From assembly GCA_045543615.1 (NCBI GenBank), contig JAZPXL010000018.1, forward strand, positions 19,837 through 83,836: 64,000 nt of DNA, in the 5' to 3' direction. Within the stretch, counting starts at the first letter, position 1; each line of letters starts with the position of its first letter. The notes under the pieces are model-generated. The model was not told where the DNA came from and ran no database searches. It was given only the letters and a program-made list of their open reading frames with translations. Positions 37,886 through 45,320 of the stretch are shown here, piece after piece. This stretch comes from Eubacteriales bacterium (GTDB lineage: Bacteria > Bacillota > Clostridia > Oscillospirales > CAG-272). The position numbers and the translations under genes are program-made.

Positions 37886-38569
37886 TTACACAAAAATTTC
37901 AGTTATGTCAACCTTTTTCTTTTTGAGATATAGCTTCATCGGTAGACTCGGCCGTATTTCAAGCGCATTCTGTGGACAACTCTGCACACACCTTATGCAC
38001 CTGATGCATTTGCTGTTTGTCTTGCCGTTTACAATGCCGGAAAATCTGCAACTATTCGTGCAGGCTCCACATTCCGTACACCTTGCCGTCTTGACTATCC
38101 TGACGCCGATGCGACTTCTTATCCCAACAAAAAGACTAGCAAAAACGTTCTTGGCCGATTTGGGTATTATAACCTCTTTCGGTGCTTTAATTTTTTCTAC
38201 AAGAGCAGTCAAGGCTTCAAAATCAGCAAAAGACTTGTCGCTCTCTAAATATGAATGCTTTGTCGGCACATATGCCCCTGCAACAACAGTATGTGGATAC
38301 TTGTTTTGTATCTCATACAATACATTTCCGTGTGACATCTTTCCGTAAGTCGCAATTATGCTCAAGTTAATGACACGACATTTTGAAAGGAAATCATTAA
38401 CAACCACGGGAATATTTTGACAATGAACAGGAAAAACAAGCACGGCATCGGTATACTCGGCATTATTGGCAAAATCAATATCAAAGAGAGGAAACTGAAG
38501 TTTTTCTGCCAAAAACTCTGCTAAAGCCTTGCTCTGTCCTGTGTTGGAATAATAAATAACCGCCCTCAT
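37886..38569 (-). CDS. Flavodoxin-like plus 2x[4Fe-4S] ferredoxin fusion (EFR1-like)
   Basis: YYSNTGQS, FPVH, CTECGACTNSC and CIRCIRCVQSCP. Confidence 0.8.
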   Translation of the reverse strand: MRAVIYYSNTGQSKALAEFLAEKLQFPLFDIDFANNAEYTDAVLVFPVHCQNIPVVVNDFLSKCRVINLSIIATYGKMSHGNVLYEIQNKYPHTVVAGAYVPTKHSYLESDKSFADFEALTALVEKIKAPKEVIIPKSAKNVFASLFVGIRSRIGVRIVKTARCTECGACTNSCRFSGIVNGKTNSKCIRCIRCVQSCPQNALEIRPSLPMKLYLKKKKVDITEIFV

Positions 38570-39954
38570 TGTTGAAAATATCTTCTCATAATCTCACACT
38601 CGCAAACCTCATCAAGTGAAAACCCTAACGACTCTCTGAGTTCCAAGAGCGCATCTTCCCTTGAAAGATTTTTGTTTCTGCTTGCAATTGCAATTTCAAG
38701 TGCGCTGAATGGTATCATAGCACTTCTCATATTATAGAATCTCATAAATTGAGAATACTCCTTGCATTTCTCAATTTGACAGCTTGTGTGCAAGCCCTTA
38801 TCGGTCTGCACGGGCTCAACCCAGCCACATTCATTTATAATTATATCCTTTATTTGCCTCCAATCGTATACGCCTCCGCTTATCTCGTCAAGATCAACCT
38901 GAACGAAAGCAGGAATATTACCCGTTAGTGAAGACGAGCGGATTGCTGTTTTGAGCGGGCTTACTATGGAAGGTACTTGGCTAATCGCCACGCAAACATT
39001 ATGTATCAGCTCGTTAGGATAGCCCGCAAGGTCTTTTAGCTTATTGTCTCCGTATGCAAGCTGCTTCATTGTTGTAAGCGTGTGAAACTGCCCTCTTTTA
39101 AGTGGAGGGTGTAAAGTCAAAACTCGCCCTATATTTATTAGCAAATTCAACGCCTTGTTATCATAAAAGCTGTATGCTAGCCTTGGTGCCATATGGTTGT
39201 AATACAGTCCCAGCATTTGCGCAGGCTCGTTACCTGCAACAAAATAAGGCACTTTGTTTGCAACAAGCTCCGGGTAAAACAAAACATAGGCAAGCGATGG
39301 GCAAGCACAGGTATTTTCGTTTAGTTCATATAGCTTTTTGTATATGGTGCGCAAATCATTATTTGATACACGCCGTGTTATGAATTCAACTGTGTCAAAT
39401 GCATTCTTGGCGTTCTCGATGCTCTTTTTTGCGCATTCCGACATATAAGGTATTTCCCAGGTCAGAGCAAGAACTCGAAGCTTTTGAACCACCGAAAGAT
39501 AGTAAAGCAAATACGTCGAATCCTTGCCACCAGTATAAAATACAGCCACATCAAATCTCGACTTCTTTGAGTGTGGGAAGGTGTTCATAATCGGGACAAT
39601 GCTCTTTAGATCCCTGACGCTATCTGCAGACTGACAGATTGGACACAGTCCATCAGAATCAAATTCAATCCCCGGGATCATAAAATCGTTAGCTATGCAA
39701 GACCTGCAAAAAGTTGCTTCATCAAGTGAATTCGGCACCCTTCTCTTTTCCCGAACATCAACAATTTGCTCACCAACAAGAGATCCTAACACCTCAAGTT
39801 CGCGCTCCAAAAGTTCGCACGGCAACTTTTTAATTATGTCAATTTGCTTTGGTGTGAGCTTGCAAATATTTTTGAACATATATGGCTTATTTCTAAGTCC
39901 GTAATACCTCAAAAGCTTTCCCTCAAGCCTCCACCTACTCTGTATATCGTACAT
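38566..39954 (-). CDS. PP-loop (N-type ATP pyrophosphatase) protein of unknown function with Cys-rich N-terminal motif
   Basis: CxxC..N....PGIEFD..G.CxxC followed by YTGGKDS; C-terminal HTSC.IE; start after GAGG. Confidence 0.75.
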   Translation of the reverse strand: MYDIQSRWRLEGKLLRYYGLRNKPYMFKNICKLTPKQIDIIKKLPCELLERELEVLGSLVGEQIVDVREKRRVPNSLDEATFCRSCIANDFMIPGIEFDSDGLCPICQSADSVRDLKSIVPIMNTFPHSKKSRFDVAVFYTGGKDSTYLLYYLSVVQKLRVLALTWEIPYMSECAKKSIENAKNAFDTVEFITRRVSNNDLRTIYKKLYELNENTCACPSLAYVLFYPELVANKVPYFVAGNEPAQMLGLYYNHMAPRLAYSFYDNKALNLLINIGRVLTLHPPLKRGQFHTLTTMKQLAYGDNKLKDLAGYPNELIHNVCVAISQVPSIVSPLKTAIRSSSLTGNIPAFVQVDLDEISGGVYDWRQIKDIIINECGWVEPVQTDKGLHTSCQIEKCKEYSQFMRFYNMRSAMIPFSALEIAIASRNKNLSREDALLELRESLGFSLDEVCECEIMRRYFQQ

Positions 39955-39998
39955 AGGAAACCTCATAAACAAATCAAGTTCACAGCATTTTTCGCCAC

Positions 39999-40829
39999 TT
40001 AAAACTCATAAAAAACCGCTCTTTCGTAGCCTTTTTTATTTGGAGCGTGCAGTGAGATCATTCTCTTTCCATCAAGAGTGTAAAACAACATAGCGTGTCC
40101 ACCGTCAAAATCAAACTTGCTTCCACTATGAGTCCACTTACCTTTGATAGAATTACTTTCAGCTCCCAAAACAAGGTACCTGCCCTTGTAAAAGCTCGAC
40201 CATATCATTTTTAGTTTCCCGTCCTCACGATAGAAAAAAGGCCCATCTGTCACAAAATTTCCCGAATTGTTGTTGTCGCTAACTCCCGGATTATCGGTTG
40301 CTTTAAAAAGCATAAAAGGGGTACCGACAGGACTTGAGAGATCTTCAGCAAGCTCAACTGCCCAGATCTCACCATTTTTGACTTGAAGCCATTCGTGGCA
40401 AAATACCATATACGGCACGCCATCCTCTACCAGAAGCGTTCCGTCAAGACATTCCCAATCTAACGGAGTCGCGGGCTTTTCAGATACGGGAACAAATTCG
40501 CCATCGGGAGTGTCGCAGACAAATATTTGTGTTGCTCTGCATTTTCCCTCAGCCTTACAGCTTCCAAACAAATAGTATCTTCCGTTATATTTATGTACCT
40601 CAGGTGCCCAGAAATCTCTGTCAGCCCAAAAGCCTTGTTTCTTTGCATCAAATATTACCTTTGGAGGTTCAAAGTTTTCAAGATCGTAACTTTTGCAAAC
40701 TGAAAATGTAGCCTCAGTTGCATACGAAAATGGCACCAGATCAATAGTTCCGTACATATAGTAACAGCCCTCTTCGGTATCGGTAAGAATAAAAGGATCT
40801 CTTATTCTGAGTTCACTTCTGCTAATCAT
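39999..40829 (-). CDS. Glycoside hydrolase family 43
   Basis: IRDPFIL, FWAPEVH, CLDG, VTDGP and GGHAM. Confidence 0.88.
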   Translation of the reverse strand: MISRSELRIRDPFILTDTEEGCYYMYGTIDLVPFSYATEATFSVCKSYDLENFEPPKVIFDAKKQGFWADRDFWAPEVHKYNGRYYLFGSCKAEGKCRATQIFVCDTPDGEFVPVSEKPATPLDWECLDGTLLVEDGVPYMVFCHEWLQVKNGEIWAVELAEDLSSPVGTPFMLFKATDNPGVSDNNNSGNFVTDGPFFYREDGKLKMIWSSFYKGRYLVLGAESNSIKGKWTHSGSKFDFDGGHAMLFYTLDGKRMISLHAPNKKGYERAVFYEF

Positions 40830-41792: not shown

Positions 41793-42035
41793 TCATTTTA
41801 CTTTTCTTTGTGTTATGCTTTTTATAAACCGAACAATTGCGCTGACAATTGCAACCAATACGCAAAGGACAACTATTCCAAGCAAAACTATTGTGTCTCC
41901 ATCAATCTGCGGTGAATCAATTCTCACTCCAAACAGGTAAAAAACAAGTGCGCCAATGCCAAACAGTATGGCAACAATCGCAAGCTCAAGCAAGCCCTCA
42001 ATAAGCGCCTTGCCGGTTTTCTTTCCATTTTTCAT
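41793..42035 (-). CDS. Small two-TM hypothetical protein
   Basis: 80 aa with two hydrophobic helices; GGAGG RBS. Confidence 0.7.
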   Translation of the reverse strand: MKNGKKTGKALIEGLLELAIVAILFGIGALVFYLFGVRIDSPQIDGDTIVLLGIVVLCVLVAIVSAIVRFIKSITQRKVK

Positions 42036-42094: not shown

Positions 42095-42370
42095 TTATAA
42101 AACCGAATTACCAAACCAACACTTTTTCATTGCTTCCAAGAAATCTTTAGTTATAGGATATCCACTACTTTCGCCTATTACAGAATCAACTCCACAAAAT
42201 GGGCAGAGTGCCGTTTTGCTTCTGTCTTGTATCCAGTCCGTAATCTTCGTTGGTGAAAAAATCTGCAGGCAATAAAAGCATCCGCAAACGGAGTCATTTT
42301 GCAAGATTTCTTGGTTGTTTATACTATACTTGTGCGCTTCAAGCACAGAGTAAGAATTATTCATAATCAT
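42095..42370 (-). CDS. Small Cys-rich hypothetical protein
   Basis: CGCFYC...TALCPFCGVDSVIG; GGAG RBS. Confidence 0.75.
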   Translation of the reverse strand: MIMNNSYSVLEAHKYSINNQEILQNDSVCGCFYCLQIFSPTKITDWIQDRSKTALCPFCGVDSVIGESSGYPITKDFLEAMKKCWFGNSVL

Positions 42371-42424
42371 TCTCCAATAACAATTATTATGTTCAAATCA
42401 AGAAATACGTTGGTAAAAAGCGAT

Positions 42425-43114
42425 TTATGCAATCTCAATCTGCCAAAAAATCTTTTTGCACTTGATATATGGCTCACCTATTTCGATGTCATAATCACAG
42501 CCATCGATCCAACTACCAAAACCGTCCAATACTCTGAACAAAAAGCCTTCTTCTGTCAGCTTGATTTCAGAATCCAATATCTGACCGACTTTTCCCTTGA
42601 AATCTGCTTCAACAACTCCCTCAAAAGTCACAGTAATGTAGCAATCCCAAGTTGTATCAATGCGTACTACGATACTATTTCCGTTCTCCACATACTCACT
42701 TATAAGAGAATCGTGAAAACCAAATGTCAAGCTCTGGAGATCGGCGATCTCTCTATCGTTTTTCAATTCAAACAACTTTGGAACACTTATGCGTTTGCAA
42801 TAGTCCTTAAATAAAGGGAAATCTTCTATCTTTGCGCCTTTTTTTGAACTAAGTGCTGTCAAAAGTGTTTTATCCCTTATCACCCAATCAAATCCGACAA
42901 AGTCTCCACCACTTGTATCAAAATCATTTTCAAGCACAAATACATTTCTGTGAAGCCCATCAAATACTTTTGTGTACCATATTTTTATTTTTATGATTTT
43001 CTTAAACGTTTCATCAAAGGCGATCACCTCGGAATCCCAACCTGCATATTTCAAAGCAAATATAGGTGACACATAGGTCGAACCGTCTTTGTTTTTTACA
43101 ATTCCATAAGTCAC
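42425..43114 (-). CDS. Hypothetical protein (cassette cargo 2)
   Basis: 229-aa ORF with GTG start after GAAAGGAG in the repeated leader; C-terminal FHDS.I...I.FEGV segment. Confidence 0.75.
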   Translation of the reverse strand: MTYGIVKNKDGSTYVSPIFALKYAGWDSEVIAFDETFKKIIKIKIWYTKVFDGLHRNVFVLENDFDTSGGDFVGFDWVIRDKTLLTALSSKKGAKIEDFPLFKDYCKRISVPKLFELKNDREIADLQSLTFGFHDSLISEYVENGNSIVVRIDTTWDCYITVTFEGVVEADFKGKVGQILDSEIKLTEEGFLFRVLDGFGSWIDGCDYDIEIGEPYIKCKKIFWQIEIA

Positions 43115-43122
43115 TTTGGGTA

Positions 43123-43339
43123 ATCTCCTTTCGATATGTTATACCAAACAGATGTAAATTGAAATTTCGAGTTTCGCTCGAAATCATTATTTGTCCCAAC
43201 GCAACTTGGGGCATTTTTTGTTTTTGAACACCAATTTTTCGAATTTTTATTTCTAAATCGTTCAAAACGACTTGATTTTGCCTATTTTAAGCCGATTTTG
43301 GCTCATTTTCGTGTCAGACAAACGACACTCTCGACGTGT
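43123..43339 (-). repeat. Repeat copy B: duplicated rlmD 3' end (43301-43339) plus structured leader and RBS
   Basis: 33/39 identity to 43873-43911; ATCTCCTTTCGATATGTTATA, AAACAGATGTAAAT and two hairpins shared with 43705-43825. Confidence 0.9.
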
Positions 43340-43399
43340 GTCAAGACTCCAAAAGGTCTCAAAATAGTCGAAAAACGGGGGGTGTAATACCTTAAAGTC

Positions 43400-43702
43400 T
43401 CACTTTTCGATTCGCAGTTTTTTATGTTCACGGATTTTTTTCACAACATTATCAGAAAAAGACCAAATATGATACTTGCCTATACCGCTTTCATTTGCCA
43501 AAAAGAAAACAGTTTTTTCTTTTTCCGTCACAGCGAAAATATGCGAAAATGTAGGGTTTGCGCCTTGGATTGTTTTCCCGAAGGGCAAGATAATTGGACG
43601 CAGCAAGCACTTCCATTCAAATCGCATAATCTTTATACCATCAATTTCTAAATCTCCACCTAGCGGATAGTAACCTAAATAGATTGCTTTGGCTAACATC
43701 AA
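43400..43702 (-). CDS. Hypothetical protein (cassette cargo 1)
   Basis: About 100-aa ORF directly after the GAAAGGAG RBS of the repeated leader. Confidence 0.7.
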   Translation of the reverse strand: MMLAKAIYLGYYPLGGDLEIDGIKIMRFEWKCLLRPIILPFGKTIQGANPTFSHIFAVTEKEKTVFFLANESGIGKYHIWSFSDNVVKKIREHKKLRIEK

Positions 43703-43704
43703 TT

Positions 43705-43911
43705 ATCTCCTTTCGATATGTTATATTAAACAGATGTAAATAAGGGTTTTGAGTTTTGCTCGAAACTCTCTTTTGTCCCAAGGCAAAATTGGGGCATTTT
43801 TAAATTTTTAACACCGATTTTTTAAAAAACCACTCAAAAAGGCTGAAAAATACCCATTTTAGGGTCAAAATCGCTCATTTTCTCATCAGACAAACTAAAC
43901 TTTCGACGTGT
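43705..43911 (-). repeat. Repeat copy A: functional rlmD 3' end plus structured leader and RBS
   Basis: Diverged direct repeat of 43123-43339. Confidence 0.9.
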
Positions 43912-45320
43912 CCTGTACCGGGAAAAAGATCTACCGGCTGGACTTCGCCAATGCTCCAACCAAGTGAACGCATATATGCGCAGTCTCTTGCAAGCGTTGC
44001 AGGGTTGCAAGAAATATATACTATTTTTTCGATTTTTGTGCTTCTACCGTCCTCGCCGTTCGATGATGCGTTTGTAATCGCATCAAGAAGCTGTTCGGTG
44101 CATCCCTTTCTCGGTGGATCGACTATAACGACATCCGGAAGCTCTGCATCAGCTTTATTCAACAGCTCAATCACTCCCTCACCGGAGTCAGCGCACACGA
44201 ATGTTGCATTCGCAAGTCCACTTGCTTTTGCATTACGCCTTGCGCATTCTACTGCCTCGGGTACAATTTCAACACCTATTATTCTCCGAGTCTTATTTGC
44301 CATAGAAAGACCAACTGTGCCAATTCCGCAATAAAGGTCATACAAATGCTCGCTTCCACTAAGAGAGGCGAGATTTGCGGCCTTTCTGCAAAGCAACTCT
44401 GCTGCGTCGTGGTTGACTTGATAAAATGCCGCAGGCGAGATTTCAAGTCGCACGCCACAAAAAGTATCAAATATTTCGCTTCTGCCCGACACAGTTCTGT
44501 ACTTGTCTCCGAGAATTACATTTGTGTTTCTTGTATTGGTGTTAATCGTCACCCCTACAACACACGGAAAAGCTTGCATTATCTCGCTTGCGATTTCCGC
44601 CTCTCCCGGAAGCTCGTCTCCGTTTATAACAAAACACACAGAGATTTCAGGATCATCACCACTTGATGTGCGAAGATATAGATGGCGCAAGAGTCCCTCG
44701 CCACTCTCCTCACAGTAAACGCTAAGCTGTCTTTTCTCTGCAAGCGCACACACAAATTCAACAATGTCACCAAATATTTCGGGCTGAAGTGCGCATCTCT
44801 CAACGCTTGCAATACGATGTGTTCCGCTTGCATAAAAGCCTGCACGGACGTGACCATTCATCAACGCAAACCTATATTGACCTTTGTTTCTGTAAGCAGA
44901 AATAACAGCGTTCCCGTTTTCGTCCTTTACATAATCAACAGGCAGAACAACCACATCGCCAAGCCCACATTTTTCAAATTCGCTCTCTACGTTTTGTCTC
45001 TTAAGTTCAAGCTCGTGTGTGTATTTTATGTACCTGTAAGCGCAACCCCCACAGGTAGAGGGAGCTGTGCACTTACGGGTATTGTCACGAAGAGGAGACT
45101 CTGTAATTACTTTACAAAGTCTGCCGACACAATAAGTTTTTGTGACTTTTATGATTTTTGCTTCAATTTTCTCGCCACTGACGCTACCTGAGACAAAGCA
45201 GACAACTCCATCCTCTGTGCGACCGACGCCAAAGCCGAGATTGCTGACAGCCGTAATATCAAGAACAACTATATCATTCTTCTTGGGCAGTACAGCTCTG
45301 TTTTTCTTTTTATCAGACAT
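43875..45320 (-). CDS. rlmD: 23S rRNA (uracil-5)-methyltransferase
   Basis: TRAM domain, CGGC Fe-S motif, FYQVN, DLYCGIG, VDPPRKG, YISCNPATLARD and DLFPGTGHVE. Confidence 0.95.
   Translation of the reverse strand: MSDKKKNRAVLPKKNDIVVLDITAVSNLGFGVGRTEDGVVCFVSGSVSGEKIEAKIIKVTKTYCVGRLCKVITESPLRDNTRKCTAPSTCGGCAYRYIKYTHELELKRQNVESEFEKCGLGDVVVLPVDYVKDENGNAVISAYRNKGQYRFALMNGHVRAGFYASGTHRIASVERCALQPEIFGDIVEFVCALAEKRQLSVYCEESGEGLLRHLYLRTSSGDDPEISVCFVINGDELPGEAEIASEIMQAFPCVVGVTINTNTRNTNVILGDKYRTVSGRSEIFDTFCGVRLEISPAAFYQVNHDAAELLCRKAANLASLSGSEHLYDLYCGIGTVGLSMANKTRRIIGVEIVPEAVECARRNAKASGLANATFVCADSGEGVIELLNKADAELPDVVIVDPPRKGCTEQLLDAITNASSNGEDGRSTKIEKIVYISCNPATLARDCAYMRSLGWSIGEVQPVDLFPGTGHVESLVCLMRK

Follow-up and report, generated by a model that had tools for sequence, protein, structure and literature searches.

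The locus studied here raises the question of why the end of a housekeeping gene should be repeated a few hundred base pairs behind it, with each copy leading into a different small gene. We analysed a window of 64,000 nt from the 2.1-Mb, 96% complete genome of a bacterium of the CAG-272 family (Clostridia, Oscillospirales). Its minus strand, on which all features lie unless stated otherwise, carries rlmD (rumA), encoding the 23S rRNA m5U1939 methyltransferase (43875–45317; TIGR00479, 339.5 bits, cut-off 183.55). An earlier note, made from the sequence alone, had reported that the last 39 bp of this gene recur nearby, and pairwise comparison within the window confirmed it: 43873–43911 and 43301–43339 agree at 33 of 39 positions with an offset of 572 bp. 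The related leaders that follow end, as that note had described, in the same 21-nt block containing the RBS (43725–43705 and 43143–43123, no mismatch). The two units of gene end plus leader are 78% identical in their mutual alignment, homology stops right behind the RBS, and unrelated ORFs of 100 and 229 aa follow, as the alignment and the ORF list both bear out. In the genome-wide BLASTn search that had been proposed, the 230-bp unit matched its second copy at E = 3e-28 and nothing else in the genome at better than E = 0.04, which argues against a chance repeat. Family profiles for tail, leader and core matched the genome only at the two window sites (next best E = 0.068). Each cargo ORF is AT-rich, with a GC content of 0.37 (rlmD, 0.45; whole genome, 0.46).

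Reading away from rlmD, the first element is the rlmD-proximal site (43873–43932), which is attB/attL-like, with CA at 43910–43909 as the inferred exchange dinucleotide (core profile score 33.6 at 43910). Leader 1, or left arm (43705–43874, placed by alignment and profiles), holds hairpins, a half-site copy with a palindrome from 43779, TATAAC at 43725–43720 and the RBS. It leads into the first cargo gene (43400–43702, 100 aa, or 99 aa if started at the ATG at 43699), whose stop codon lies inside the first box of the right end, or tail. The tail (43339–43404; profile score 91 bits) contains two 22-bp half-site copies about 41 bp apart and ends at a second CA. There the second copy of the rlmD end begins (43301–43338, HVESVVCLTRK*; placed by repeat match and symmetry), forming with the tail an attP-like junction symmetric about CA at 43338–43337. 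The last 12 codons of rlmD itself (HVESLVCLMRK*) likely derive from the newest cassette. Leader 2 (43123–43305) is built like leader 1, as judged by alignment, profiles and the identical 21-nt block, and precedes the 229-aa cargo gene (42425–43114). A core and tail profile scan of the window found neither element behind this gene, so the window holds one complete cassette (43910–43339) and one with its left end alone, the right end having been lost. The unit that had been proposed, comprising rlmD end, leader with RBS, ORF and a tail of about 60 bp, therefore describes the first unit (tail at 43404–43339) and not the second.

Five genes further downstream in the window are cassette cargo in other genomes. 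A 91-aa gene without recognisable ends (42095–42370) is a probable older cassette whose homologue begins 51 bp past a core in locus L084, and an 80-aa membrane-type gene (41793–42035), also a probable older cassette, has homologues between or just behind cores in L101, L117, L137 and L150. A GH43 glycosidase gene (39999–40829; PF04616), probably older cassette cargo, lies within a complete unit in L129. The adjoining pair of 468-aa and 227-aa (flavodoxin/ferredoxin) genes (37886–39972), probably the oldest visible cassette, forms a complete 2.3–2.4-kb unit in L037, L104 and L116. From these occurrences elsewhere, the array probably once reached to about 37886.

The unit belongs to a family found in many other genomes. 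An 826-bp query had matches in 49 of 301 genomes of the CAG-272 family, the source genome included. The tail matched 7 of 400 genomes order-wide, every one outside the source family, and 10 of 164 genomes of one such other family; a class-wide pattern scan matched 4 of 400 other genomes, 2 of them with real cassette ends. In the species collection the tail pattern occurred at no fewer than 128 loci, with titles that point to gut MAGs from Clostridia, Oscillospiraceae and related groups; in metagenomes it occurred at 20. In contigs assembled from eight sequencing runs, tail and leader had many different flanks and the 100-aa gene was present at high identity; those from X20, an RNA library, were not taken as a sign of transcription. 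After 13 of 168 loci had been removed as duplicates (some short loci may still repeat longer ones), the census comprised 118 complete units in 69 loci, 287–3,453 bp long (median 877 bp) and up to six per locus. A wider set held 163 tails in 104 loci. The cargo falls into 71 families, 27 of them present in at least two loci, and 141 of 144 ORFs of at least 90 aa run in the direction of rlmD. Relatives thus carry variable numbers of units with different cargo, a point that the earlier note had suggested testing; a set of relatives sharing the same two copies and the same cargo was not what we found, since number, cargo and order all vary.

The ends of these units share a common plan. Half-site copies of 22 bp form a ladder in the tail: the first ends at CA, the next lies about 41 bp upstream, and 17 long tails have a third. 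The leader contains a fourth copy, with an inverted inner arm over the RBS and TATAAC, the latter being conserved. The cargo stop codon falls 59–68 or 23–25 bp ahead of CA, in the first tail box, in 63 of 106 units. The left arm of 22 units contains a gene for a four-helix bundle, which the window units lack. An Rfam search of 11 loci found no known structured RNA in the arms, the sole match being a tRNA.

Several loci depart from this plan. The long tails of L037, L098, L112, L136, L152 and L154 begin, about 120–140 bp before CA, with a motif resembling rlmD upstream of the site and the L494-type integrase arm described below. In L440 (about 1400–1520), L107, L134 and L149 the four-helix-bundle gene stands alone and the leader half-site runs into a long tail; these apparently empty cassettes hint at a second, internal exchange point for cargo. 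The left arms of L038, L039, L045, L048 and L110 carry inserted hairpin arrays and GTAG-initiated palindromes, REP-like and of no Rfam family. Rarer minimal cassettes (L041:5914, L121, L428 and L430; 5 of 273 junctions) have a GA-type right end like the last codons of an integrase gene, and in L073 and L146 an unrelated structured right end, possibly that of a group II intron, stands immediately before CA. Contigs of L037, L043, L051, L054, L100, L139 and others end in or just past the array, as expected if strains differ in cassettes, and L240 holds one cassette twice (at 2589 and 5085, oriented) in an array of seven junctions.

Cassettes recur in different hosts and in different positions. 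The complete window cassette was found at 95.5, 94.3 and 90.1% nucleotide identity in L110, L119 and L427. The rlmD of the L110 host shares 38% protein identity with that of the window and gives no nucleotide alignment with it. In L110 the 229-aa gene lies ahead of the 100-aa gene, the reverse of the window order, and both of the remaining cargo pairs shared by two loci are reversed too. The 100-aa cargo forms a leaderless 400-bp unit in L427, and the 229-aa gene is accompanied by a tail in four other genomes. Among 21 loci of the same genus, rlmD runs straight into the same next gene without a tail in five, is followed by tail-type cassettes in five and meets the left end of a larger element first in three; in L266 a cassette sits between rlmD and the gene that directly follows it in the five loci. 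In L275 the tail is joined to the left end of an older element, a junction that fits exchange and not target duplication. Pure target-site duplication was rejected on this ground and because the left and right cores of a unit are hardly more alike (23.3 of 30 positions) than random pairs (22.6). Tail scores drop with position along arrays (rho −0.30, p = 0.016, 66 junctions). The unit, its spread between hosts, its variable number and order, and empty sites are all directly visible in these loci. The earlier view of small cassettes with standard ends stacked at rlmD, and not full ICEs, was borne out by this recurrence in other hosts and orders and by the lack of recombinase genes within the tail-type units examined.

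Three measures were used to place the point of strand exchange. Within internal cassette junctions, symmetry is greatest around CA, in the rlmD His codon (9.1 of 22 matches), and another, unexplained peak lies at +9 (8.3); junctions of vanG-type integrases peak instead at GA (10.6). Cassette sites show linkage for bases +6 and +9 (p = 5.5e-5 and 0.009). Host relatedness is tracked by −1 and −3 (p = 0.003) and not by +3, +6 and +9, these p-values being generous because kin are not independent; +12 also follows the host, which is likewise unexplained. Symmetry, linkage and host-tracking agree on CA, which lies in the His codon at a distance of 6 bp from the GA used by vanG/ICE-r integrases. Insertion lies within the last 11–12 codons of rlmD, and the gene end is replaced.

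Taken together, we consider it fairly probable that recombinase-free gene cassettes are stacked at the 3' end of rlmD by a large serine integrase acting in trans, which inserts them in circular form at the His-codon CA. Each cassette consists of a spare copy of the last codons of rlmD, a promoter-like leader that may be absent, a single gene or a pair of genes, and the standard right end; its circle would carry tail and core as attP. Exchange at CA would give rlmD a new end and displace older cassettes outward. As this end is similar to its predecessor, the site would remain usable. Recombination of the rlmD site with any tail junction could then excise one or more units, and re-entry via another junction would change cassette order. 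Old units would be left without their ends, as ordinary genes, and duplications and mosaic ends would likely be added by homologous recombination among the repeated ends. We infer both circle formation and a recombinase acting in trans. Cross-excision by phage integrases at rum, where two integrase systems with distinct sites are described in the available part of PMC13651849, provides a precedent for action in trans.

The array itself encodes no such enzyme, in line with the earlier observation that the window lacks an integrase. The genome search for large serine recombinases that had been suggested found a single one, on another contig (G000:C25:40187-41839, L001; 550 aa). It follows a phage-capsid-like ORF, has no rlmD-type site nearby and is 28% identical to the L494 integrase. 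The five PF00589 tyrosine recombinase matches of the genome also lie on other contigs, so that no IntI gene adjoins the entry site, and a purpose-built profile found no tyrosine recombinase in 168 array loci. No recombinase was found in any tail-type unit examined (tblastn, and purpose-built serine and tyrosine profiles on the 168 loci) or by Pfam among 83 cargo representatives (of 91 listed clusters, 83 were searched and 8, likely spurious ORFs in leaders, set aside). Searches for an integrase joined to a tail were likewise negative with core, tail and leader profiles on serine-recombinase loci of relatives, with BLAST in phages and plasmids, among short homologues of the GA-type integrase and among 150 integrase representatives. 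In viral contigs the tail pattern matched once, inside a phage tail gene and by chance.

These searches bear on a second reading, in which the units are deletion scars (CIMEs), remnants of a large ICE, IME or prophage in rlmD that lost its interior, and do not move by themselves. Tandem accretion and decay at gene ends are described in the accessible part of PMC5704250, and autonomous integrase elements do occupy the site in this family, with GA-type integrases in 14 of 400 family genomes, sometimes just ahead of cassettes, and an element of 13 kb present in G255. At five junctions the right end is short and integrase-like, and the tail is stop-free in the gene-end frame of CA-type integrases in 122 of 168 copies, which may be compositional. 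No large element ends in the cassette tail (163 tails, 104 loci), and the idea that the leader might be seen solely as the terminus of large autonomous elements found no support there. No long protein ends in the tail peptide, which matched three short ORFs, and no CIME-type parent with a cassette tail was found in viral contigs, the species collection, metagenomes, array loci or serine-recombinase loci. The same small cassette at 90–96% identity in different hosts and positions, ends set tight against the ORF in the 63 units above, and the reordering of cassettes weaken the reading further, and we regard it as unlikely.

Exchange at a single fixed point does not account for all of the data. 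Adjacent junctions share at least 100 bp in 9 of 140 pairs, against 0.2% between loci, and have identical cores in 6 of 140, against 0.12%; a single fixed-point exchange cannot explain the shared stretches, so local duplication or gene conversion must occur besides it. Cores and tails track cargo weakly, and tail boxes occur in mixed combinations. One could go further and dispense with a present recombinase, the repeated ends of 30–250 bp serving as homology arms through which RecA-type recombination on incoming DNA swaps, duplicates and deletes cassettes. The shared arms and mixed boxes suit this reading, as do the 8 of 30 array-bearing genomes that have no PF07508 match and, in the available part of PMC13651849, the movement of rum-integrated elements of streptococci by homologous recombination. 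Crossovers within the core would, however, keep +3 and +6 with the host, and it is −1 that follows the host and not they. The dyad and the half-site ladder are conserved, and cassettes have passed between hosts with rlmD genes that give no DNA alignment. We therefore hold this reading to be quite improbable.

If a serine integrase moves the cassettes, as we prefer, the next question is which one. The L494 integrase, a 591-aa protein encoded in a genome of the CAG-272 family, has a gene end that crosses the rlmD site out of frame. Homologues that agree with each other in the upstream residues nevertheless vary at +3 and +6, so this integrase family exchanges at the His-codon CA. By eye, a second half-site can be read in the L494 arm about 33 bp upstream; CC at −18/−17 and GAC at −4 to −2 are common to this arm and the tail. 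L494 itself was reached from a streptococcal phage integrase pair used as a probe, which gave no connection to the tail. In profile comparison the tail matches the CA-type arm at p = 0.010 and the GA-type arm, shifted by one base, at p = 0.006, and thus fits the CA-type no better. The latter match would suit a reading in which the known GA-type (vanG/ICE-r) integrase moves the cassettes and the tail is a slightly off-spaced attP arm, and GA-type integrase genes do lie directly ahead of cassettes or cassette-type arms in L150, L292 and L295. Symmetry, linkage and host-tracking nevertheless put the exchange left of +3 or +6, whereas junctions of the GA-type enzymes themselves are symmetric about GA and show no linkage across it (n = 33, p = 1.0), which makes this very unlikely. 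For the cassettes, the CA-exchanging, rlmD-targeting family of the L494 type is the best candidate. The likeness is modest, and no member joined to a tail was found; the likely enzyme class is a rumA-targeting single serine integrase, its gene end out of frame with rlmD, that would arrive on ICEs or phages.

A one-off duplication or assembly artefact in the source genome is barely credible: public runs include none that holds this strain (best share 0.18), yet the two copies differ (78% identity), each cargo has these ends in other genomes as well, and independent runs also yielded the 100-aa gene together with its flanks (in assembled X2 contigs, for example, 43378–43725 with 3 differences), so that the suspicion of an artefact raised in the earlier note is largely refuted. 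No cassette circle was seen. In run X6 a joint from 43872 to 43301, back 572 bp, was not counted as excision, because one of its sides has 31 letters and the joint could as well be an array junction of another organism.

Read-through from rlmD had been suggested as the route of expression. It is not the sole likely one, since the long leader has the conserved TATAAC 6 nt ahead of the RBS and an operator-like palindrome, and the leader is likely promoter-like; a sigma-70 scan gave 4 sites against 5.0 expected and did not call the TATAAC. Many units have their own leader with TATAAC, and others are leaderless and would need transcription from upstream. In L427:1527-1901, compared with window 43705–43725, core and RBS are joined without a leader through a short sequence common to the core end and the leader end, and by recombination at this sequence leaders may be gained or lost. 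On the plus strand, both leaders contain terminator-like hairpins (43164–43213 and 43743–43796; 8 against 1.5 expected in 42300–44000), which could stop transcription heading for rlmD.

The cargo is mixed, and most of it is without a family. The 100-aa protein had no match in Pfam, NCBIfam, PADLOC or Atlas. The 229-aa protein gave a sub-threshold DUF4085 match and an Imm50 look-alike at 0.86; the best fold match of its low-confidence model (pLDDT 52) was a 115-residue chain of a toxin–immunity complex (E = 0.011), with no fold match at E ≤ 0.001 and no solved relative. These matches give a weak immunity-like lead. Among the 83 cargo representatives, no Imm family matched at E ≤ 1e-4, and there was one DMP19-like match. 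The remaining cassettes carry, among other genes, a type II restriction system, HNH, NERD and PDC-S57 matches, a helicase and enzymes. The cassette in L106 is an HpaII-type restriction system with a DNA methylase, and cassettes in L266, L275, L082 and L113 combine a restriction endonuclease-like gene with a DNA methylase, as judged by ORF layout alone. In streptococci, resistance elements are known to enter at the rumA/rlmD site; no such element was seen among the cassette cargo.

The cassette stack is a real, widespread and integron-like system, and a reduced version of the accretion hotspot already known at rumA/rlmD. A literature search, with most subscription journals outside its scope, found no published description of minimal cassette arrays at rlmD. 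Closest in target are the rumA-targeting ICEs with a single serine integrase, whose att site, in the available part of PMC4701971, lies in the integrase gene and changes its reading frame. They replace the last codons of the same gene end, and the L494 family, with the same CA, fits them. The cassettes differ in carrying no integrase, conjugation or replication genes, in measuring about 0.3–3.5 kb and in having a right end unlike the sampled arms; the ICEs have an att arm within their own integrase gene. The vanG and ICE-r elements in rumA, of about 45 kb and exchanging at GA of a Glu codon as far as PMC4120198 is accessible, share the hotspot, tandem insertion and reconstituted gene end, and related integrases lie at rlmD in the CAG-272 family. 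Their integrase is fused in frame at the right end and uses GA, whereas the cassettes lack an integrase and use CA 6 bp upstream. Further rumA elements sharing the site appear in the accessible parts of PMC7168690 and PMC4288039.

Other systems are alike in form. CIMEs, in the available text of PMC5704250, are att-bounded, lack integration and transfer genes and are stacked at a gene end, all of which is also true of the cassettes; CIMEs are described there as decay products, in contrast to the ORF-sized cassettes, whose standard ends recur across hosts in differing orders. SCC and SCC-like cassettes lie in tandem at an rRNA-methyltransferase gene end (rlmH) and are excised in all combinations by serine recombinases (CcrAB/CcrC); they are the best functional model. 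In the accessible part of PMC11470126, SCCmec at rlmH, in another host group, is 24–68 kb long and has ccr inside the array, unlike the recombinase-free array at rlmD. The rAID-1 clusters of Bacteroidales (bioRxiv 10.1101/471110, as far as available) are low-GC, co-oriented arrays with repeated intergenic motifs in gut bacteria, and may be seen as an ecological parallel; they have an XerD-like head gene and immunity cargo, whereas the stack has no recombinase, mixed cargo and a weak immunity lead. The suggestion of an integron-like gene-capture array holds for function, in that ORF-sized, co-oriented cassettes of variable number and order share one entry site, as do those of integrons and CALINs (PMC4889954, available part). 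It does not hold for identity: IntI adjoins the array in integrons, and the stack has no IntI, an entry site in a housekeeping gene and a site like a double-stranded serine-integrase dyad. The accessible part of that study reports no complete integron found in Firmicutes.

More tentatively, and with somewhat less than an even chance in our view, the stack could be an integron analogue on serine-integrase chemistry. It would have rlmD as entry site, the tail as cassette site and a dedicated CA-type integrase on mobile elements; new cassettes would arise from ends fitted to an RBS and a stop codon, and old ones would be pushed outward and fixed, forming a long-term gene-import belt. If a serine integrase does drive the stack, it would be a second, independent solution to cassette capture. 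The system offers a concrete case for the question of how cassettes first arise, and a reusable site for repeated gene stacking. For the bacteria themselves, the finding means that cassettes of ORF size pass between genera and between families of uncultured gut Clostridia via one chromosomal site, from a pool of about 70 mobile gene families, mostly of unknown function, that includes defence genes (the type II restriction system and the HNH and PDC-S57 matches).
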